Of a DNA stretch of 64,000 nt, positions 5,167 to 64,000 are shown one piece after another. Numbering within the stretch: position 1 is the stretch's first letter; the number at the start of each line of letters is the position of its first letter. Under the pieces are notes generated by a model. That model was given only the letters and a program-made list of their open reading frames with translations. It was not told the DNA's origin and ran no database searches. Source of the DNA: Candidatus Gottesmanbacteria bacterium (GTDB lineage Bacteria > Patescibacteriota > Microgenomatia > UBA10105 > UBA927); contig CAWEKC010000005.1 in the NCBI GenBank assembly GCA_963809665.1, positions 104,392 to 168,391 of the forward strand, in the 5' to 3' direction. Both the position numbers and the translations under genes were made by a program.

Positions 5167-6386
5167 TCATTGTATCAAAGACAGGGAAAGAAAAATGGTA
5201 AACAGCAATTGCCCCTGCTGGAGGGTGAGCGTGTAGTGATCGACAAGACCGAGAAGCAATAACATACAAAATGAAACATGAATAAAAGAAATAGTAGGCA
5301 CCATGGTCTTAACCGCTTTCCATACGATCCACAAAAAGATCGCAAATCCAATGATTCCGGTTTCCGACAGCAGTAATAAATAAATATTGTGGACAGGCTG
5401 TAAAAAATAAACAGTCCGTGAGACCAGATGGGTAGGGAGTTGCACGAGAAAATTTCCCAGTCCGTTGCCGATAACGGGGGACGTGCGGAACATAGAAATT
5501 GCAGACGCGTTTAATTGTTCGCGTACGACGACCGACTCGTCCTGAAACCCGAATGTGTTTCCGATATAAAAAATTATGAGAGCTGCAAATAATAAAACCG
5601 GAATAAATAATTTTTTCTTATTTTTAAATATCAGATATACACCACCCAATGCCGCGACAATCCATGCGCTTCTGCTGAATGTCAGTACTAATGCAATGAG
5701 TCCCAAAACAATGGTCGTTATATAAAAATATTTTTTTCCTGTCGCGTAATTGCGTAACTATAAGCGGCAGCGTTACCGCTAAAAATCCTCCAAATACATT
5801 CGGGTGGGGAAATGTTGCATAGCTGCGGAGTTTAAATAACGAAATATGAAAATTGAAAATTGAAACAGTATCATCGATCCGGGCAATACCCGGGGTAAAA
5901 GCTGAAAACGTCCGTTCTCCCAAAAACCAAAATATTCCTCCGATGGAATGCTGCAATAAAAATTGAATGATCGCGATACATGAAGAATAAAAAACACCTA
6001 TGGATAACGGGAAAATAATTTGCGGAAGTTTCGGTTTTGCATACATGATATATATTCCCAACGCCGCCAGTTCTAAAATTTTTATCCATGCAAAAAATGC
6101 GACCATCCTGTTAGCAGCAAATAATATATTCAGAAAAATAAAAAGAAAGAGACAAACGATTTTAATTCCGAGCTGAACGGCGAATTTTTTTGAAGTAAAA
6201 TATATTTATTTTTTTCTCAATACACCAACTGACAAGAAGTAAAACAATGAGGATGTCCGTGGCATAGAGAGTAGGGGAAATGTAATCAATCCGTCTTCCC
6301 AAAACCAGCGCCCAATCCGGCCAGACGTGGTACCCCAGTTGCGTCGGCAGGAAAACAAGAAGAAGGGAAAATAATAACATGTGCAT
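5167..6386 (-). pseudogene. O-antigen ligase (Wzy_C)-like membrane protein split across three reading frames (ORFs 6162..6386, 5624..6106 and 5167..5706)
   Basis: An N-terminal-like segment MHMLLFSLLLVFLPTQLGYHVWPDWALVLGRRIDYISPTLYATDILIVLL, a middle segment, and a C-terminal segment containing LTFSRSAWI (the O-antigen ligase SRSA motif) lie in three different frames on the same strand, with homopolymer runs nearby. Confidence 0.5.
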
Positions 6387-8471: not shown

Positions 8472-11400
8472 CTACGGGGCGACTTCCTGCCAACTCACAG
8501 ATAATTTCTTCATTGGCTCCGGCATGGTCATGAGTAGTTGCGGGTCATAGAGGAACAGCTCTGACGCTGTGGTGGTGTTGCCGGCGTCTCTCACGTTCCG
8601 CTGGAGCAGGAAGTTTCCTGCTATAAACGAACCCTGCCCGACAAACCGATCCGTAGCAGGTCCTGAACCGGTACCTGTAATGAAAGAATGTGACGGGTCC
8701 GTAATATATATTCCTTCAACTACCGGCACGCTGGATATATACGGCACGCCCACTGACGGATCAATGGTTATATTTCCATTAACAATGAATGCGACAAACC
8801 CGGTACCGGTAATATTAATCCTGCCTTCGATACTCAGGTTGCCGTCAACAATAAATATTACTTTTTGACCTGCTGTAACCACCCAGTCGCCTGATGTGCT
8901 CATATTTCCCTGCACATAATATGGGGTGGTTCTTGAAGCAGGTTTCGGAATGGGGGACGCGGGATCTGTCCAATCCGGGTTGTCAGGGAACCCGCCGAAC
9001 TGGCTCACCATCAGTTGGTAGTAGTCCGTGTCGGGCGCCGGCGCCGTGTCGTGTGCCAGCCATTTTTGACTTGACACCCAGTCCTGGCCGTTTGTTATGC
9101 CGCTCCAGTCAAAGTTGGCGCTGGTCCCGTACGTGGCGACGCCCGGATATCCGCCGGTTCCGTTCTTAATGAATACGTCATGTGGATTCGGCGGGATAGG
9201 AGGGGGTATGAGGGATTGCATCGCTAATGCCGCATACACGTCGCCGCCGCTGGCCTGGCTCCACGGAACGCCGTGCATGTAGCCGATGTCCCACGTAAGG
9301 GTATCGCCAGCGGGTAAATCCGCAGATTGGGTTTCACCGGTGGTTGGAGCCGTAGTCCGTTGCCAGCAATACCGTGCGGGCAGATATCCTGCCGGAATAG
9401 TAGGCTGGATCGTATATCCGTTCCCGGCTGTTGCCGGATCGTACACAATATACTGGCTGCCGACTTGGGACGGCGGGACTGGAGCGGGGTGGGAAGGGGA
9501 GGAGGGGGAGAATGTGAATGTTGAACCGGCGATGCCGCCCGTGCCGCCCGCGCGTATTGTGGCGCACGAGGTGTTCGTCGGGTTAACGGTCAGTGCTCTG
9601 GCCTGAATGGTGCCGGATGACAGGCAGTAAAATGGAAGGTTAGTAGATACACATGCAAATCCCTGCGGATTGCCGCCTATGGGCACAGCAAAGACACCGA
9701 TGTTGGAGGAATACTGTTTTATATCCGGAATAATACCGGGATATCTATGCGTACCTGAGAATGTGTTACCAAGGTTTAACGAGAGGTCGCCCTCTTCGTT
9801 CGGCCAATTGGGAAACGGTTCCGGATTTAACCGCCCCTGAATGGCATTGATGGGAAAGTTGCGTGATATAACATCCCAGTCTGTTTTTATAGTCATATCG
9901 TTCCCCACAAACTCGCAGGTATTCGTAGCGGAAACGTCACAGCGATACGGAACGTTTATGGTTGCGTCCCCTGCACCTGTTTCGTTCGATTCGTTTATAT
10001 GACACGTGGCGGTTACGGTGGTCGATCCGCCGTTGCCTCCGGTTACCTCTGTTTGGTATTGAAGAGTATCGTCACTGGCAGGGCTTACGGTAGCAATAGT
10101 GGTGTTATTTGAGACAAAAGTGACGCGGGCAATCGTGCTGTTTGTCGCCGTTACCGTTGCAAGAAGGGTTGCCTTGGCTCCGGTTTCGACCGTTACAGGA
10201 TTCGGGGTGAGGGTAACTGTGCAATCAGGCGTCGGAACCGTAATCGTTGACGTGCCTGTGCCCGTCTGTCCTCCGGGCATGTGGCACGTGGCGGTTAACG
10301 TAGATGACCCCGCAGTACCGCCTGTTGCAACGGTTTGGTAGGGGGAGCTGCTGTCGCTTGACGGGTTAATTGTAGCAACATTCGTATTGCCCGAGACAAA
10401 GGTGACATTGGATATAGTCCCGCCTTGTACGCTCGTATTGGCGGTGAGCGTTCCCGTTGACCCCGTATTTAGGGTCAGGGGGTTCGGAGATATGCTGTTT
10501 ACCTGGCATGCTACGCATACTTTCGTTCCGTCGCAGGTTCCGCCGCACCCATCTCCGCAGGTCGATCCAATGCAGGTGTCGGCTGCGCAACTGCAGTCAG
10601 GGGTCTTCGTTCCGTTACATGTTCCGCCGCAACCATCACCACACGTAGATCCTTGGCAGATATCGGCTGCGCAACTGCAGTCAGGAGAACAGGAGGGAAT
10701 CCATGTACAAAAATGTTCATTACTGGTATTGCAACTTATGTCACAACTCGCCACGGTATCTAGGTTAGTACACTGATTCTGAGTGCCCCATGCATTACAA
10801 TTCATTTGGTTTTCGCCTAAATCACACCATTCGTGGTAAACACACGATCCTCCACCGCCAAATTGGTGACAATAACCAATATTGTTAGGATCACACCATA
10901 TATGAGTGATGCTACACCAGTTGTCTCCAAGGGTCCCTCCACATAATATCGATCCCTGACATCCTGCCTCGACTTGTTCAAAAAGCCTCAGGCTTATCTT
11001 TTTTTTCGGCTTCACAAACCTACCCAAGTGAAAGCCGTTCGCCTTCTTTATAAAATCCTCTGCCTTTTGAGTACATACATCCCTTGCTGGTCTTCCGGGA
11101 TCAAAAATCATACACAAGTACGTATACATGTCCCTGCTCATCATATTTGGGTCTGTCTGCGTCTTGGCAAAAGCTTCGGGACTATATTGGACGGAGAGTG
11201 TTAACTGATCTCCTTGAGTTGTTGCTCCCAAGCTTGAAAACTCGATGTCATTTCCCGCGGTATCCTTTCCCGCAAGAAGCTGCACCGCGTGCTGAACTTC
11301 CGGGGTAAAAACTACCGTAACTTTGGTAATATTGCCTGTTATGCGTTTTGTCGAATATTTTTGCGAATACAGGAATACATTCCCGAGGATTTCCGAAACA

Positions 11401-47029: not shown

Positions 47030-47032
47030 TGG

Positions 47033-47416
47033 GGACGTACAAGATTCGACAGTCCGAAGTTCTTTAACATTGCAGGCCGACTTTGACTTTAGAGTCGTTA
47101 AACACAGAGTCAAAAACTAAATGCTGAAGCTGAACAAGCAGAAGCTGCCTTCTACGCACGAAATTTTGCATTCGCAAGATTGAACGCGTAACGGCCATCT
47201 CTCGAATGTTTCTTCAGTGACGTTCCTGAGGTGTAAACAAAGCTGAGGTGCAGCTATACGGGTTCGACGTTCCTGTATAGTGAAGTCAATACGTCTTAAT
47301 CCCGCCATTCACTTGTCAATCAGCGAGGGCGGGATGACAATTAAAGATTGACTACGCCTGTAGATATGTTTCGGGACATCGCTCTGGACGAGAGCTCACT
47401 ACTCTCCGTCTCCACC
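47033..47416 (+). ncRNA. ssrA: tmRNA (SsrA), standard one-piece form
   Basis: The 5' end GGGGACG..GATTCGACAG; the 3' end GGAC-GAGAG-CTCACTA-CTCTC-CGTCTCC-A-CC closes a 7-bp acceptor stem with the 5' end; an internal ORF ...GCT GAA GCT GAA CAA GCA GAA GCT GCC TTC TAC GCA CGA AAT TTT GCA TTC GCA AGA TTG AAC GCG TAA is a candidate tag; it lies directly downstream of smpB. Confidence 0.7.
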
Positions 47417-47438
47417 CTTCGCTCCTCCTGTATGATAG

Positions 47439-59409: not shown

Positions 59410-59510
59410 AGGAACTTTAGTATATTCCTTTAGAAAACATGGTCAAGTTCGTACAAGCGATTAAATTTTACTCAATTGATAATACTTAGTACATCAATTA
59501 TGATGAATAT

Positions 59511-60197
59511 ATGGGATATTATGGTCGATTGGAATTAAAATTAAAGGCGAGAAAGATGCGTAGCGATGGTAAATCGTATATAGATATTATGCGTACGTTA
59601 CGCATACCGAAGTCCACAGTTTCTGATTGGTGTCACGATGTACAGCTTACCAAGAGCCAATTACAGAAGCTTTACAAAAGTAAAATTGCAGGAGCATTAA
59701 AAGGAAGTATTATTGCTGCCAAAAATAAACAAAATCGGCGCATTGAGGAAACTAAAAAACTATTTGCTTTAGGTATGAAAGAGGTTGGTATTTTATCTAA
59801 AAGAGATAGATTATTAGCCGGAATCGCATTTTACGCATCTGAAGGAACTAAAAGTGATAAGGGTTGTAGTTTTGCCAATTCCGACCCAACTATTATTAAG
59901 TTTATGGTCGATTGGTTCCGCGAGTTCGGTCATGTACCTCAAAAGAAATTTTACGGAGCGATTTGGCTTCACGAGGGTTTAAATGAAGATAAAGCCAAGA
60001 GATTTTGGTCCAAGTTGACACGGATTCCTGTAGCCCATTTTTATAAAACATATATTGCGTTAAACAAAAAGGATAGTAAAAAAATCAGAAAAATTATTCA
60101 TCAAAACGGCGTTTTCTCCTTTTATGTGAGTGACGTTGTACTGTACCGTAAAATTCGAGGCTGGATTGGTGGCGTTCTGGCGGTGTCAATGGTATAA
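59511..60197 (+). CDS. putative LAGLIDADG-type homing endonuclease with an N-terminal HTH-like extension
   Basis: A single LAGLIDADG-like motif LLAGIAFYASEGTKSDKG at aa ~110, flanked by basic K/R-rich segments; N-terminal HTH-like IDIMRTLRIPKSTVSDWCH; lower GC than the flanking core genome; immediately upstream of the intron-containing tRNA. Confidence 0.4.
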   Translation: MGYYGRLELKLKARKMRSDGKSYIDIMRTLRIPKSTVSDWCHDVQLTKSQLQKLYKSKIAGALKGSIIAAKNKQNRRIEETKKLFALGMKEVGILSKRDRLLAGIAFYASEGTKSDKGCSFANSDPTIIKFMVDWFREFGHVPQKKFYGAIWLHEGLNEDKAKRFWSKLTRIPVAHFYKTYIALNKKDSKKIRKIIHQNGVFSFYVSDVVLYRKIRGWIGGVLAVSMV

Positions 60198-60216
60198 TGT
60201 TTAGGTTCCTTAATAT

Positions 60217-60479
60217 TCCCCTGTAGCTCAACGGTAGAGCGGCTTCCTGTCAATTAGGCAGCGCCCAGATGTAAATCTGGATGGAAAACTAGGCTAATTC
60301 GGGGGACTCCCGCCAGAGGCGGGATAATCCCGAGCTAACCCCGACATAGAGTCGGGAAAATGTGTAGAGACTATATACCTAGCTCCCGATTATTTGGGAT
60401 GATGAGATAGTCCAAGCCTTTTGGTAACAGAAGGGTTCTTGTAAGAAGAAGGTTGCAGGTTCGAATCCTGCCGGGGGAG
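60217..60479 (+). tRNA. tRNA-Asn (anticodon GTT) interrupted by a ~191-nt group I intron in the anticodon loop (exons 60217..60250 and 60442..60479)
   Basis: Spliced: TCCCCTG-TA-GCTC-AACGGTA-GAGC-G-GCTTC-CTGT/TAA-GAAGA-AGGTT-GCAGG-TTCGAAT-CCTGC-CGGGGGA-G gives a 72-nt cloverleaf with U1:A72, as in bacterial tRNA-Asn; the 5' exon ends in U and pairs with an IGS GCAG; the intron ends in G. Confidence 0.65.
60251..60441 (+). mobile_element. group I self-splicing intron (compact IC3-like) inserted after anticodon position 35
   Basis: P7-region sequence AATGTGTAGAGACTATATACC closely resembles the Azoarcus tRNA-Ile intron GGTGTAGAGACTAGACGG; an upstream CTAATTCGGGGGAC resembles CAAATTCGGCGAAAC; the P1 helix is ctgt/gcag with a terminal U.G pair and a 3'-terminal omega-G. 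Confidence 0.6.
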
Positions 60480-60514
60480 CTTAGACTTATGGTTGTGGAA
60501 ATCTTGTTATACGA

Positions 60515-61252
60515 TTGCTGCCAATGTTTCTGTTGTTTGTTTCACTTAAATTCTTAATAAATCACAATAATATGAGGAAATATAAACAAAGAACTAAGAG
60601 AGTAACTTTTTACGTTTTATTAATTTTTGTGATAGTTATTATTGTCTTATTCTTTTTAACCTTACAGATGTTCTCCTCAAAACCGATCCAAGTGTCACAA
60701 TTGTCACCAAATACTCCAACAATTTCATTCAAAACTAACAGCGATCCTAGAATTATCAAAGAGGGCAATAAGATTTCCTTTTATGATTCGGTTAATAATT
60801 ATTATTTAGACCTTTCTAGTTTACCTGATGTCAGTCTTACCGATCGCGACACAGATGATATTTACGAATTCGAAATGTATGCATCAAATGCCCATTCAGA
60901 TAAAGGAAGCATTGCCCGGTTTGGTCTATCCCAACCACTTCTAAATCCTCAGGGTTTGAACTTACCTGACTTTGCTAGTAAACAATATAACTACAAGATA
61001 GGAACTGATAACAGTACAGGATGGGGCCCTTTAACAACATCCGCATTGAAAGAAGTGGTAGTGGGAAATAATTATCCTGCAATCACATGGACTTCAGAGA
61101 GTCCGGGTAATGGCTCATATTTTTTTAATTACTATCTTATTCAAATTAAAGATAGAATTGTCTTTGCTAAACTAGTAGCATGGAATAAGAAAATTTTTGA
61201 TTCTAATATTACTGTTTTCAGAAATATATTAAATTCATTCCGTGCTGATTAA
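60515..61252 (+). CDS. hypothetical secreted protein encoded in the low-GC island
   Basis: AT-rich 245-aa ORF with an N-terminal TM/signal anchor LLIFVIVIIVLFFL. Confidence 0.45.
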   Translation: MLPMFLLFVSLKFLINHNNMRKYKQRTKRVTFYVLLIFVIVIIVLFFLTLQMFSSKPIQVSQLSPNTPTISFKTNSDPRIIKEGNKISFYDSVNNYYLDLSSLPDVSLTDRDTDDIYEFEMYASNAHSDKGSIARFGLSQPLLNPQGLNLPDFASKQYNYKIGTDNSTGWGPLTTSALKEVVVGNNYPAITWTSESPGNGSYFFNYYLIQIKDRIVFAKLVAWNKKIFDSNITVFRNILNSFRAD

Positions 61253-61387
61253 TCTAACCAAAGGCCGGTTTTTGTACAACAGATAAACAAAGAGTTCGAG
61301 TAAGGTCAGGCACAGGGAGCCAATTAGTTTAGCCTCAGTTTTTAAATACCTTCAGTTGAATATTCAAACTCATGCTATGATCATCTT

Positions 61388-61762
61388 ATGAGTGAATTAC
61401 CCCCACCTATTGATAGTCGAAATATATATATGCGAGAGATTGAGGAAAAAGGTTTAAATAACTTTTATTCAGATATGGTTGGAGGCTATAGAAGAGTTGG
61501 ATGTAAAAATATACCTGGAATGCTTACGAAAAAAGATTCAGGCAGTAGGATGGGGAAAAGTATGGAGGAGTATTGGAAAGATATAGACGAGGCGTTTATA
61601 CAAATGGATATTGACAAGAATAAGGTTAGTGGCTTACAGGAACAAATGAGAAACGGAAAAGGGAGGAGAGAAGATTTGCTCAGGGAATTAAATGCATTAC
61701 TAGTGCCGGTATATGTCCGATTAAGAGAGCAGGGTTATTCGCAAATAGATCTTTGGTCATAA
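61388..61762 (+). CDS. hypothetical cytoplasmic protein (low-GC island)
   Basis: 124-aa charged ORF. Confidence 0.4.
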   Translation: MSELPPPIDSRNIYMREIEEKGLNNFYSDMVGGYRRVGCKNIPGMLTKKDSGSRMGKSMEEYWKDIDEAFIQMDIDKNKVSGLQEQMRNGKGRREDLLRELNALLVPVYVRLREQGYSQIDLWS

Positions 61763-61928
61763 TATCTTTTTCGTAAATTTGTCTTCCAGAAAATTAGTAA
61801 TACCCGGTGAAATATCTGTTATTACCGATGATATGTAAATGGGAAGGCTTAGCCTCGAGCAGTTAAAAGAGCAGGAATAGGTTAGAAATTGATTAATCGT
61901 CGAAAATCACCGGTTTTGGGTATAAAGC

Positions 61929-61957
61929 AGGTTCGAACATCGTATACCGCTCGGAGC
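61929..61957 (+). repeat. degenerate copy of the tRNA-Asn 3' end (AGGTTCGAAC...GGAGC), first copy; candidate att-like scar
   Basis: GCAGGTTCGAAcatcgtataccgctcGGAGC compared with the tRNA 3' end GCAGGTTCGAAtcctgccgggGGAGC. Confidence 0.5.
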
Positions 61958-62020
61958 CAGTTGGCACTTAATATACTAAATTATTTTTACTATTCTTAGT
62001 TATTGGAATATAGTTAAGTT

Positions 62021-62263
62021 ATGAGATTTGCAAAAAGATTCTTTTTATTCCTACTTCTTGCTTTTGTTATTTATGCCCTTTTTTCATTAAAAGCTTACTT
62101 TGGATATAGAAGTGGCTATCGAGATTGCGATACAGTTAGGGGAACATCAGAATTGATCTCTCCTGATCCAAAAGCGTCTTGTAGATGGAATAACTCTTAT
62201 TTATTCTGGAAAGTATTATTTCCTTTTGGATGGCCAGTCTATCCGCATAGGGCACCTATATAA
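62021..62263 (+). CDS. small secreted/membrane protein (low-GC island)
   Basis: Signal-like N-terminus MRFAKRFFLFLLLAFVIYALFSL. Confidence 0.35.
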   Translation: MRFAKRFFLFLLLAFVIYALFSLKAYFGYRSGYRDCDTVRGTSELISPDPKASCRWNNSYLFWKVLFPFGWPVYPHRAPI

Positions 62264-62378
62264 TAGTTCTGACCTTTTCTACCTCTTTTTTTATTTGAAC
62301 TACTAACCTGAAATCTTCGAATGTCTTAATAATACTTGCTAATCGAGTGGTTATATTAGTGTTACGATTCTCGAGCAA

Positions 62379-62588
62379 TTATTTATCATTATGTTCTACT
62401 TTTAGAATAAGATTTGGCTTAATCCCTGACAACGCAGGCAACAAATGATTTAATACTTGCTCAGGTGTCATCCGAAATTTATTTCCCCGAGCTGAAATTT
62501 TGACCCATCCATCTTTATCTTTATAATATTTCTCAGTATAATTCTTAGTTCCAATACTAATCACATAGTTTTCATTCTTGAGATTCAT
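62379..62588 (-). CDS. small hypothetical protein (low-GC island)
   Basis: 69-aa ORF. Confidence 0.3.
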   Translation of the reverse strand: MNLKNENYVISIGTKNYTEKYYKDKDGWVKISARGNKFRMTPEQVLNHLLPALSGIKPNLILKVEHNDK

Positions 62589-62607
62589 TGATTAATTTTA
62601 GCATAAT

Positions 62608-62636
62608 AGGTTCGAACATCCTCTACCGCTCGGAGC
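62608..62636 (+). repeat. second degenerate copy of the tRNA-Asn 3' end
   Basis: AGGTTCGAACATCctctaccgctcGGAGC; 26 of 29 identical to copy 1. Confidence 0.5.
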
Positions 62637-62652
62637 ATAGTATAATAAACAT

Positions 62653-63027
62653 ATGGAAATTTCAGTTTATCTTGCAAGGTTTTGGGGAAGTTTGTTTATA
62701 ATCCTCGGTTTGGGCGCCATGGGAGTCAAATTATTAGGCAGGATTATACAATATACCGAAGATAAGACTATTACAGTTTCCACCGGATATATTACGTTTC
62801 TTTTAGGATTAATCACGGTAACACTGCACAATGTTTGGGTTGCCGATTGGAGAGTGGCTATTACCATTTTAGGTTGGACAACTTTATTAAAAGGAATTGA
62901 AAAAATTGCATTTCCGAACCGGGTCAATAAAATAGCAGTGAAGTTTAAAGGCGGACAAACACTTTGGGGATTTGTTATCTTTCTAATCGGAGTATTTTAC
63001 TTTTGGATAAGTTTAACCCTTCGGTAA
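62653..63027 (+). CDS. four-TM membrane protein of unknown function
   Basis: 124-aa hydrophobic ORF. Confidence 0.45.
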   Translation: MEISVYLARFWGSLFIILGLGAMGVKLLGRIIQYTEDKTITVSTGYITFLLGLITVTLHNVWVADWRVAITILGWTTLLKGIEKIAFPNRVNKIAVKFKGGQTLWGFVIFLIGVFYFWISLTLR

Positions 63028-63030
63028 GAT

Positions 63031-63297
63031 ATGTCATATTTATCCATATTGGCGACAATTGTTGGGATTGTGATGGCTTTGGCTGGAGTTCCACAGGCGA
63101 TTAAAATATTTAGGAGAAAAAGCGTGGAAGATATATCTCCAATAACTTATTTCATTATTAGTATTGGTGGTATTGTTTGGGTGTTCTATGGATTTGAGAT
63201 TCATAGTATTGCTGTGATAATTTCCAATGCTTTGGTTATGTTAACCTCAATCTTCGTGATTATAGAGTATTATCTATTTAGAAAATCTACCACGTAG
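63031..63297 (+). CDS. SemiSWEET / PQ-loop sugar transporter (three-TM unit)
   Basis: 88 aa with three TM helices and the PQ motif LAGVPQAIKIFRRKSVEDIS. Confidence 0.7.
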   Translation: MSYLSILATIVGIVMALAGVPQAIKIFRRKSVEDISPITYFIISIGGIVWVFYGFEIHSIAVIISNALVMLTSIFVIIEYYLFRKSTT

Positions 63298-63350
63298 GAA
63301 TTTGCGGTGGAATTGGATTTTGAAAAATCTGAGCAAGGTGTTTGCTGTAT

Positions 63351-64000
63351 TTACCTCGTCGGCAACGTAAAAGTAAAGGTAGAGCCCTTGCCGGGTTCGC
63401 TTGATTCCAGGACAACATCCCCATGCATGAGTTGGGCAAACTTTCTTGATATATAAAGTCCTAACCCGATGCTTTTTGCCGAAGACTGCAAACGGGCGCT
63501 GTCAATCTGCATAAACCGCTTAAAAAGCATCCGTTGATAGTCCTGCGGGATACCCCTGCCGGTATCTGTAATTTTTGTCGCTATCGCGGTGGGGCTCTCC
63601 TGATGCGTGATCGTGAGTCCTCCCTGCAGCGTGTACTTGATGCCGTTGCTCATCAGGTTTGTCAACACTTCTTTTGATTTCGTTTGGTCTGCGACAACCA
63701 TCCTGTGTTCAACGGAGAAAGGCTCGTGATTGATATAGAGTTTCCGGCTTTTAGCTAGGTCTGAAAGTTCCCGGATGACTTCATCGGTGAGCGCGACAAT
63801 ATCAAAAGGTTTTGTTTCCACCTGCAGTCTGCCCTGTTCAATCCGTGATATGTTCAGGTAATCATTAACGAGAACTACTAATTGTTCGGATGTTTTGTCA
63901 ATTTGCGTCAGGTGCTCAACTATTTTTTCGCGGCCCATTGTATCCATCTTTGTCAACAGTAAGGATGTTGCGAGGCGTATAACGGTTAGCGGCGTGCGAA
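63351..64000 (-). CDS. sensor histidine kinase (DHp + HATPase_c), N-terminus beyond the window edge
   Basis: N box LTNLMSNGIKYT, G1 box DTGRGIP, G2 box GLGLYISRKFAQLMHG; the ORF stays open to position 64000. Confidence 0.75.
   Translation of the reverse strand, partial: RTPLTVIRLATSLLLTKMDTMGREKIVEHLTQIDKTSEQLVVLVNDYLNISRIEQGRLQVETKPFDIVALTDEVIRELSDLAKSRKLYINHEPFSVEHRMVVADQTKSKEVLTNLMSNGIKYTLQGGLTITHQESPTAIATKITDTGRGIPQDYQRMLFKRFMQIDSARLQSSAKSIGLGLYISRKFAQLMHGDVVLESSEPGKGSTFTFTLPTR

Follow-up and report, generated by a model that had tools for sequence, protein, structure and literature searches.

How did a low-GC block come to lie at the tRNA-Asn gene of a Candidatus Gottesmanbacteria contig, and is it the leftover of past integrations or a region that is being maintained? 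The DNA analysed, here called the window, is a stretch of 64,000 nucleotides (nt) of contig CAWEKC010000005.1 (positions 104,392 to 168,391), and the block occupies its positions 59410-63340. The original prediction, made from the letters alone, described an island of about 3.9 kb that starts at tRNA-Asn, is partitioned by two degenerate copies of the tRNA 3' end and may be a decayed remnant. It was right in kind and wrong in detail: the observation was partly confirmed and its interpretation is partly supported. We explain the block as two layers, a conserved module (59511-60480), in which a gene for a protein with helix-turn-helix (HTH) and LAGLIDADG-fold domains precedes an intron-bearing tRNA-Asn, and a flexible gene array (60481-63340), which begins at the tRNA 3' end and carries two copies of a conserved 29-nt element, E, that would serve as an attachment-type (att-type) junction site. 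We put the probability of this explanation as a whole, with both layers and the function of E included, at roughly 0.5.

The block is sharply set off by its composition, as had been predicted. GC content is 35.8% over 59410-63340 and 34.4% in the array part (60481-63340), compared with 49.4 ± 2.1% (minimum 44.2%) in same-size segments of positions 1-59409. The AT-rich stretch at 60541-60600, for which about 25% had been estimated, measured 21.7%, and composition does recover at the histidine kinase gene (47%). GC at third codon positions (GC3) is 0.23-0.34 in six island genes vs. 0.45-0.57 in the flanking core genes (dnaG, rpoD, GH18, the genes for proteins of 287 and 73 amino acids (aa), and histidine kinase). 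The start of the island had been misplaced, however. Rather than beginning at about 59410, tRNA-Asn occupies 60217-60480, some 800 nt inside the low-GC block, and together with its intron has a GC content of 51%; the DNA at 59511-60197, previously counted as island, is a conserved protein gene and not cargo. Neither this gene nor the tRNA intron had been recognized. The conserved module consists of the following features:

59511..60197, + strand: gene for a basic 228-aa protein: HTH at the N-terminus, then a long linker helix, and a single LAGLIDADG-fold domain (motif LLAGIAFYASEGT) at the C-terminus
60190..60198, + strand: extended -10-like box TGGTATAAT, overlapping the stop codon of the 228-aa gene; putative tRNA promoter, read from the sequence
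60217..60250, + strand: tRNA-Asn(GUU) exon 1, last base U35; the joined exons give a canonical cloverleaf (ARAGORN)
60251..60441, + strand: group I intron (RF00028), 191 nt, at anticodon-loop position 35/36, between U35 and U36
60442..60480, + strand: tRNA-Asn exon 2, with T-arm GCAGGTTCGAATCCTGC and 3' end CGGGGGAGC (ARAGORN on the joined exons)

Comparison with loci and contigs of relatives, which carry L-numbers here (L001, L004, L044 etc.), places the boundary between the two layers. Sequence conservation with the relatives ends at the last base of the tRNA, 60480, and the genes 3' of it differ in every relative, which bears out the earlier view of this flank as a variable insertion region. 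None of the island proteins has a homolog in the first ten relative loci, whereas the upstream GH18 and 287-aa genes do, and for the 226-aa protein that heads the array no homolog was found at any relative's locus retrieved. The array and its right flank comprise:

60572..61252, + strand: 226-aa protein of no known family (245 aa if started at an upstream TTG, 60515); hydrophobic at one segment near the N-terminus; GC3 0.28
61388..61762, + strand: soluble 124-aa protein, no known family; GC3 0.33
61929..61957, + strand: E1, 29-nt element AGGTTCGAACATCGTATACCGCTCGGAGC; profile E 6.6e-6
62021..62263, + strand: 80-aa protein with an N-terminal hydrophobic segment; GC3 0.23
62379..62588, - strand: soluble 69-aa protein, also present in the arrays behind tRNA-Asn in L044 and L046 and antisense to the tRNA each time
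62608..62636, + strand: E2, 29-nt element AGGTTCGAACATCCTCTACCGCTCGGAGC, the consensus form of the family
62641..62646, + strand: TATAAT box, 6 nt upstream of the next start codon; putative, near-leaderless promoter, likewise read from the sequence
62653..63027, + strand: 124-aa multi-pass membrane protein, no Pfam family, a recurrent array member
63031..63297, + strand: SemiSWEET transporter, 88 aa (PF03083 5.1e-14, PF04193 7.8e-12, NF037968)
63351..64000, - strand: histidine kinase gene, cut by the window end; GC3 0.54

The SemiSWEET transporter had thus been identified properly (PF03083). Three further proteins have hydrophobic segments, in line with the small membrane or secreted products that had been proposed, and two are soluble. 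At the equivalent site in L004, a large serine recombinase (PF00239, PF07508, PF13408) abuts the tRNA and is followed by small open reading frames (ORFs) and a type I restriction-modification system, with no duplicate of the tRNA 3' end within the 7.7 kb searched. The ORF called for this recombinase (L004 8838-10463, - strand) overlaps tRNA-Asn, which lies on the other strand and ends at 8971, by about 130 nt and reaches through exon 2 into the intron. Either the gene call is too long, or the attachment region codes for the C-terminus of the enzyme. The array of L008 holds DUF1801 proteins, an RNHCP protein and a TrwB/DUF87 ATPase; that of L006 holds a NYN protein, a hydrolase and others. Also 3' of the tRNA in L006, an unannotated stretch at 9200-9480 translates to a GIY-YIG-like motif (...FLYIGYSEDLKKRIASHN...) and may be a nuclease remnant.

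Two loci reached via homologs of the 124-aa membrane gene, L044 (a 1.08-Mb contig) and L046, show the array at greater length. In both, an intron-less tRNA-Asn heads a long run of small, unrelated and nearly all co-oriented genes (in L044, 21 of the 22 genes 3' of the tRNA lie on the tRNA strand). The 124-aa membrane gene is found 2.2 kb from tRNA-Asn in the window, 2.9 kb in L046 and 4.4 kb in L044, on the + strand in all; the 69-aa gene (73-75% identity) lies at +1.9 kb, +0.9 kb and +6.7 kb, respectively, antisense in all, and the order of the two is therefore swapped in L044. L008 shares three genes with L044, in another order, and a TPR gene with L046. On our analysis, shuffled order combined with preserved orientation is the behavior of a cassette array. 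We read the DNA 3' of the tRNA as the local instance of a flexible gene array starting at the tRNA-Asn 3' end in this clade, whose modules would mostly be single genes from a clade-wide low-GC pool, fixed in orientation to the tRNA and variable in order. Several modules have a TATAAT-like box 6-8 nt before the ATG, and the layout seen at the 124-aa membrane gene is repeated at its homologs; a scan of the island for sigma-70 promoters and terminators gave nothing above shuffles.

The 124-aa membrane gene also speaks against the proposed decayed remnant, as its 736 homologs include more than 120 clusters at 77-91% identity. A search of viral contigs with this gene gave no match. Among the homologs, P0121-P0240 span Gottesmanbacteria, Shapirobacteria and other Microgenomates; the protein is better conserved than the neighboring core-linked ORF, and its GC3 is 0.34-0.36 in the three genomes examined.

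The two 29-nt elements on which the original prediction rested are real. E1 and E2 are identical at 27/29 positions, form the longest direct repeat of the region and align to each other with a score of 48, far above either against the tRNA. An 11-nt match to the tRNA end had been claimed for both; it holds for E1 (GCAGGTTCGAA), whereas E2 shares 9 nt (AGGTTCGAA). No further copy with up to three mismatches occurs in the 64-kb window, where shuffles predict 0, and a profile found no E-like unit in its other 60 kb. Elsewhere, however, E forms a family with the pattern AGGTTCGAAC-N14-GGAGC, represented by 13 strong copies in 8 contigs and by divergent copies in L006, L025, L041, L044 and L046. 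Its 24-nt core is near-identical across the 8 contigs, which come from different organisms of 32-49% GC, and lies beside unrelated genes. An exact-pattern scan of species genomes matched a single contig, L011, with two copies 652 nt apart around an unrelated gene, and the same scan of viral contigs gave no match. In metagenomes, six low-GC contigs carry E, often two or three times per contig, on one strand and between unrelated accessory genes.

Two observations concern the contigs recovered in these scans. Among the metagenome matches to the pattern, 21 of 29 were irrelevant actinobacterial carboxyltransferase coding sequence and were set aside; in high-GC loci of the series L012-L040, TGAACATCCT[C/G]TACCGCTCGGAGC is a conserved coding segment (…NILYRSEL…) present in many soil contigs, which looks like an actinobacterial acyl-CoA carboxyltransferase and is a trap for E-core searches. 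L011 (CAYSOR010000043.1), labelled 'uncultured Gammaproteobacteria', shares the tRNA array Ser-gct, Ser-tga, Arg-gcg, Ser-cga, Arg-ccg, has genes 67-71% identical to window 48.7-53.5 kb, and is probably a mis-binned Patescibacteria contig.

Profile searches located E-like 29-mers in L006 (10747), L041 (6175), L044 (5672, 6951 and 8111) and L046 (4632 and 6937), with a weaker unit at L006 11610 (seen with an earlier E-core profile only) and a further one at L046 5277 (pattern scan only). Wherever the position of the tRNA is known (window, L006, L041, L044, L046), all copies are on the tRNA strand and 3' of tRNA-Asn. Conservation in the de-weighted divergent set peaks at positions 1-10 (AGGTTCGAAC) and 25-29 (GGAGC), whereas the middle varies; the most conserved positions are those that match the tRNA T-arm and 3' terminus. 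The spacing from AGGTTCGAA to GGAGC is N15 in all E copies vs. N10 in the tRNA, i.e., 5 nt longer. Because strand and position relative to the tRNA, the tRNA-matching positions and the +5 spacing are all kept, and the core is near-identical across genera, E is a maintained family and not a set of decayed scars.

E sits at the junctions of modules; it typically marks the 5' edge, and in many cases the stop codon of the gene before lies within 2-30 nt. An E-like unit precedes the 124-aa membrane gene in the window (E2), L044 (6951) and L046 (6937) although the upstream neighbor differs, and E therefore goes with the downstream module; in the window and L046 a unit also abuts the start of the 69-aa gene. 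For a hydrolase module common to L006 and L025, homology begins about 10-20 nt before one E unit and stops inside the next. Three copies constitute the left arm of an imperfect hairpin of 80-90 nt (-23 to -27 kcal/mol) with a co-varying terminal stem (GTCCGAAC/GTTCGGAC, GTTCGAAC/GTTCGAAC and GGTTCGA/TCGGACC). The left arm is far more conserved than the right; in the L006 hairpin it has drifted to match the right arm, and E1 and E2 are solo left arms. No target-site duplications were found around the hairpin copies, and a search of 58.5-64 kb against Rfam with E up to 1 returned no family at E1 or E2. A spacer in L044 holds CCTACTCGCGGAGC, a 13/14 match to its own tRNA-Asn end for which about 0.005 would be expected by chance.

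Taken with the variable array, these properties give close to an even chance that E is a maintained att-type junction site at which a recombinase acting in trans would use E together with the tRNA-Asn 3' region. The putative site-specific recombinase would recognize E and the similar T-arm and 3' terminus of tRNA-Asn, and modules would thereby be inserted, excised and reshuffled at the tRNA-Asn locus. A wider version, which we consider rather unlikely, is that many Patescibacteria keep an integron-like 'gene shelf' at tRNA-Asn, with a trans-acting recombinase recognizing the tRNA-mimicking AGGTTCGAAC-N14-GGAGC and the HTH-LAGLIDADG protein possibly joining in by cutting or binding the near-palindromic T-arm DNA.

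A number of findings weigh against E as a recombination site. Just as the original prediction had noted the lack of an integrase, none of the 7 island ORFs has a recombinase domain in Pfam or NCBIfam, and no recombinase was found beside the E copies in short contigs. Some junctions in L044 and L046 have no E-like unit, and in the window the first two genes follow the tRNA without one, nor does any separate the 124-aa membrane gene from SemiSWEET. E has no symmetric arms of the kind typical of tyrosine-recombinase core sites and falls outside the R''/R' consensus of integron attC sites (RYYYAAC/GTTRRRY), its hairpins ending in GTYCGAAC/GTTCGRAC. The resemblance to the tRNA is itself weak: aligned locally to exon 2, E1 and E2 score 22 and 19, no better than random places in the window and contrary to the predicted match, and E read as its reverse complement also looks like a tRNA D-arm (CGGTAGAG), so more than one route can lead to short tRNA-like matches. 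L011 has its two copies near tRNA-Arg(CCG), in opposite orientation, with no tRNA-Asn on its 8-kb contig. The position statistics are not independent, because several loci were reached via a gene with E upstream. Finally, the two layers are not mechanistically coupled, because the HTH-LAGLIDADG ORF coexists with an intron-less tRNA-Asn in L043 and arrays occur without the ORF in L044 and L046. Two other identities for E were tried and dropped. It fits an integron R-box site only if a 1-nt insertion is allowed, and as a reverse-strand tRNA fragment its reverse complement offers CGGTAGAG and TTCGAAC but neither a cloverleaf nor a match to a tRNA model.

Three other explanations were weighed. Taken literally, the original prediction would make the region the decayed remnant of successive integrase insertions, and E1 and E2 displaced, degenerated and now functionless former tRNA 3' ends. 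Location, strand and order suit this account: a displaced 3' end should precede the former first module, and E is indeed inherited with the downstream gene. The near-exact partial copy in L044 of its own tRNA end and the recombinase abutting the tRNA in L004 suit it too. Nevertheless, all E copies have the same +5 nt spacing, and a 24-nt core that is near-identical in 13 copies on 8 contigs is absent from the tRNA, a pattern that independent decay could not yield. The window 3' of the tRNA lacks any duplicate of the tRNA 3' end (at least 14 nt with at most 1 mismatch), including at the distal edge (63298-63350), and a hairpin arm with a co-varying stem, as formed by some copies, is unexpected for a displaced tRNA end. 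The reading of E1 and E2 as degenerate att scars of the tRNA end is thus not supported, and this model as a whole is very unlikely.

A second possibility is a cis-regulatory role. E could be an operator or upstream promoter element of a clade-specific DNA-binding protein that controls accessory genes, and would then lie at module edges simply as part of the promoter region of each gene. In every case E is on the same strand as a downstream gene, it lies just 5' of a TATAAT box near an ATG at E2, L025/L006, L020b and L044 6951 and 8111, a unit is kept 5' of the 124-aa membrane gene in three genomes, and a core of 24-27 nt that is near-identical across genera is what protein-binding sites look like. 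Yet start codons follow E at anything from 5 to about 180 nt, a spread at odds with a fixed operator, some copies lack a gene close behind them (L037), the consensus promoter scan did not rise above shuffles, and neither the restriction to arrays beside tRNA-Asn nor the resemblance to the tRNA end is explained; we consider regulation unlikely. Alternatively, E might be a small mobile or RNA-level repeat, such as a hairpin of the miniature inverted-repeat transposable element or repetitive extragenic palindrome type or a signal for mRNA 3'-end stabilization or processing, which accumulates in permissive intergenic DNA and resembles the tRNA by coincidence. Full-length copies do fold as 80-90-nt hairpins with compensatory changes in the terminal stem, many copies begin 2-30 nt past a stop codon, and, taken alone, the local alignment to the tRNA falls short of significance. 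Such a repeat would nonetheless have to do without visible target-site duplications, without an Rfam family and without a U-tract for termination; there are only two copies in 64 kb, each an unpaired solo left arm, conservation is far stronger in the left arm than in the right, and the bias in strand and position toward tRNA-Asn arrays stays unexplained. This origin, too, is improbable.

On the other side of the boundary, the tRNA-Asn gene is split by a group I intron. RF00028 matches 60236-60434 over the full model (1-253/253) with 65 bits vs. a gathering threshold of 50 (E 2.7e-15), and the intron was recovered also in the Rfam scan of the whole window. When the exons are joined, ARAGORN calls tRNA-Asn(gtt), in which the acceptor stem has 7 bp and the arms are normal, whereas on the window it calls six tRNAs without Asn because the intron splits the gene. 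In P1, CUGUC pairs with GGCAG, which gives a U35.G wobble at the 5' splice site, and the intron ends in ...CTTG, i.e., with a terminal G. Transcription of the tRNA would probably start from the TGnTATAAT box overlapping the ORF stop codon, after which the intron would excise itself and the ligated exons would yield a normal tRNA. A box like TGGTATAAT occurs at the equivalent place in L001, L004, L006, L008, L010 and L042. In L006 an insertion of about 73 nt (8705-8777), opening with an apparent duplicate of TTCCCC, separates the promoter box from the tRNA 5' end.

The intron belongs exactly to a class already known. Nakagawa et al. (mSystems 2026; PMC13011429) described group I introns at position 35/36 of tRNA-Asn in Patescibacteria, of which 25/28 are of subgroup IA; related 35/36 introns self-splice in vitro, while that of the window is assigned by sequence. 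The window agrees with these introns in phylum, tRNA, site (U35|U36), detection by RF00028, the failure or miscall of ARAGORN, length (about 190-260 nt) and the lack of a homing endonuclease gene (HEG) within the intron, and the intron itself shows no difference from them. The lack of intron-encoded HEGs was taken as a sign of limited mobility (PMC13011429). That study makes no mention of a conserved upstream gene or a variable downstream array, and in contrast to its view of HEG-less introns a LAGLIDADG-fold gene lies here about 20 nt from the tRNA. If such a gene regularly stands about 20 nt 5' of tRNA-Asn, the view of HEG-less, little-moving tRNA introns is to be re-examined. In practical terms, a tRNA-Asn missed by standard callers leads annotation pipelines to report it absent and to mislabel the locus.

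The upstream gene encodes a strongly basic protein (46 K+R vs. 19 D+E) whose C-terminal domain has the alpha-beta-beta-alpha-beta-beta-alpha fold of LAGLIDADG proteins. In the motif helix LLAGIAFYASEGT, residue 111 is E or D in 21/21 sequences and G112 is invariant; we infer that residue 111 is a metal ligand. Searches of Pfam and NCBIfam with E up to 0.1 gave no LAGLIDADG family and weak HTH matches only, the PDB gave no sequence match, and viral contigs yielded no member of the family. Every named one of its 238 homologs is from Patescibacteria. A homolog lies directly 5' of tRNA-Asn in all nine contexts (window, L001, L004, L006, L008, L010, L041, L042 and L043), of which eight have the intron and one, L043, has an intron-less tRNA-Asn; identities are 54% for L041 (Saccharimonadales), 51% for L042 and 55% for L043. 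A TGnTATAAT-like box overlaps the stop codon of the homolog in most contexts, and in L001, L010, L042 and L043 the gene is flanked directly by rpoD on one side and the tRNA on the other. L044 and L046 have no member of the family, as would fit gain and loss.

Divergence of the ORF runs parallel to that of rpoD (98% with 82-90%, 88-94% with 64-66%, 54-62% with 48-56%), and because of this the gene is a long-term resident. Its conserved position and rpoD-like divergence argue against free mobility. It keeps 37-39% GC and a GC3 of 0.33-0.36 in genomes of 42-47% GC (window, L001, L004, L006, L008, L010), where the GC3 of rpoD is 0.50-0.58, and its composition seems never to adapt to the host. We read the gene and a tRNA-Asn(GUU) that follows it within about 20 nt as a conserved module of Microgenomates and Saccharimonadia-type Patescibacteria, with the intron in the tRNA of most members. 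Most likely the gene product is a free-standing DNA-binding protein of the homing-endonuclease type, resident and possibly domesticated, which may still cut DNA; L043, with both the ORF and an intron-less tRNA-Asn, argues against an enzyme obliged to cut intron-less tRNA-Asn.

In the position that this gene holds elsewhere, directly 5' of tRNA-Asn and on the same strand, L044 has an unannotated 218-aa gene (1802-2458, + strand). Its residues 96-111 (RAGLIFGISLLAIEDA) align with the query motif RDRLLAGIAFYASEGT, at an hhalign probability of 0.8%, which is not significant. The 218-aa gene and a 277-aa upstream gene of L046 were considered as remote homologs of the ORF family and rejected, as the comparison was not significant.

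Free-standing homing endonuclease genes beside intron-bearing targets occur in T4-like phages and cyanophages, where they are known from 'collaborative homing', and WhiA is a domesticated LAGLIDADG DNA-binding protein with two degenerate domains and a C-terminal HTH. The 228-aa protein differs from WhiA in its single LAGLIDADG domain and N-terminal HTH, and it has no Pfam LAGLIDADG match. Unlike a freely homing gene, it keeps its position and diverges as rpoD does, and it coexists with an intron-less tRNA-Asn in L043.

The array resembles tRNA-anchored islands with tandem accretion, in which integrase-mediated insertion at a tRNA 3' end leaves direct repeats: it lies next to such an end, its composition is deviant, its content changes from relative to relative, a recombinase occupies the equivalent site in L004, and in the window repeats resembling the tRNA 3' end partition it. 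It differs from them in that the window has no integrase and its distal boundary is not marked by a direct repeat of the tRNA end; the repeats are a conserved 29-nt family with fixed extra spacing, common to several genera, and not copies of the tRNA end; the units between them are not whole islands but single genes of 0.6-1.6 kb; and the same genes recur in the arrays of other genomes in another order. With integron arrays and clusters of attC sites lacking integron-integrases (CALINs) it shares runs of small, mostly co-oriented and unrelated genes, shuffled order with preserved orientation, short junction elements, some of them imperfect hairpins with conserved termini, and the lack of an integrase nearby. 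In contrast to integrons, there is no IntI and no tyrosine recombinase in the island (Pfam) or in the Pfam lists of L044 and L046, E belongs to the gene that follows it and not to the one before, TATAAT-like boxes near the ATG of several modules suggest that these have their own promoters, some junctions have no element, and the anchor is a tRNA gene instead of attI.

The intron is thus already known, and a tRNA-anchored island is of a known kind. What appears to be new is the constant pairing of a gene of HTH-LAGLIDADG fold with tRNA-Asn, the clade-wide shuffled array anchored at tRNA-Asn and the conserved 29-nt junction element resembling the tRNA end; a limited literature search turned up no account, for Patescibacteria, of arrays that are integron-like or anchored at a tRNA. 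Genomes in this group are tiny, and how they gain and exchange accessory genes is poorly understood. A tRNA-anchored array with its junction element would, if true, be a testable route of exchange and a handle for finding the recombinase. That the locus reflects a true cassette-exchange system is doubtful in our judgment, but would make it considerably more interesting.

Two further features of the window lie away from tRNA-Asn. A second low-GC patch at 5167-6386 (- strand; 500-nt segments below 40% GC) contains three ORFs for membrane proteins (179, 160 and 74 aa), which overlap or adjoin one another in different frames, beside a 413-aa flippase-like gene, and looks like one polytopic gene, possibly O-antigen-ligase-like, broken by frameshifts. 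A full-length transfer-messenger RNA (tmRNA) gene is present at 47031-47417 (+ strand; 122.8 bits in Rfam) and absent from the ARAGORN output; L010 has a homologous tmRNA 3' of smpB.

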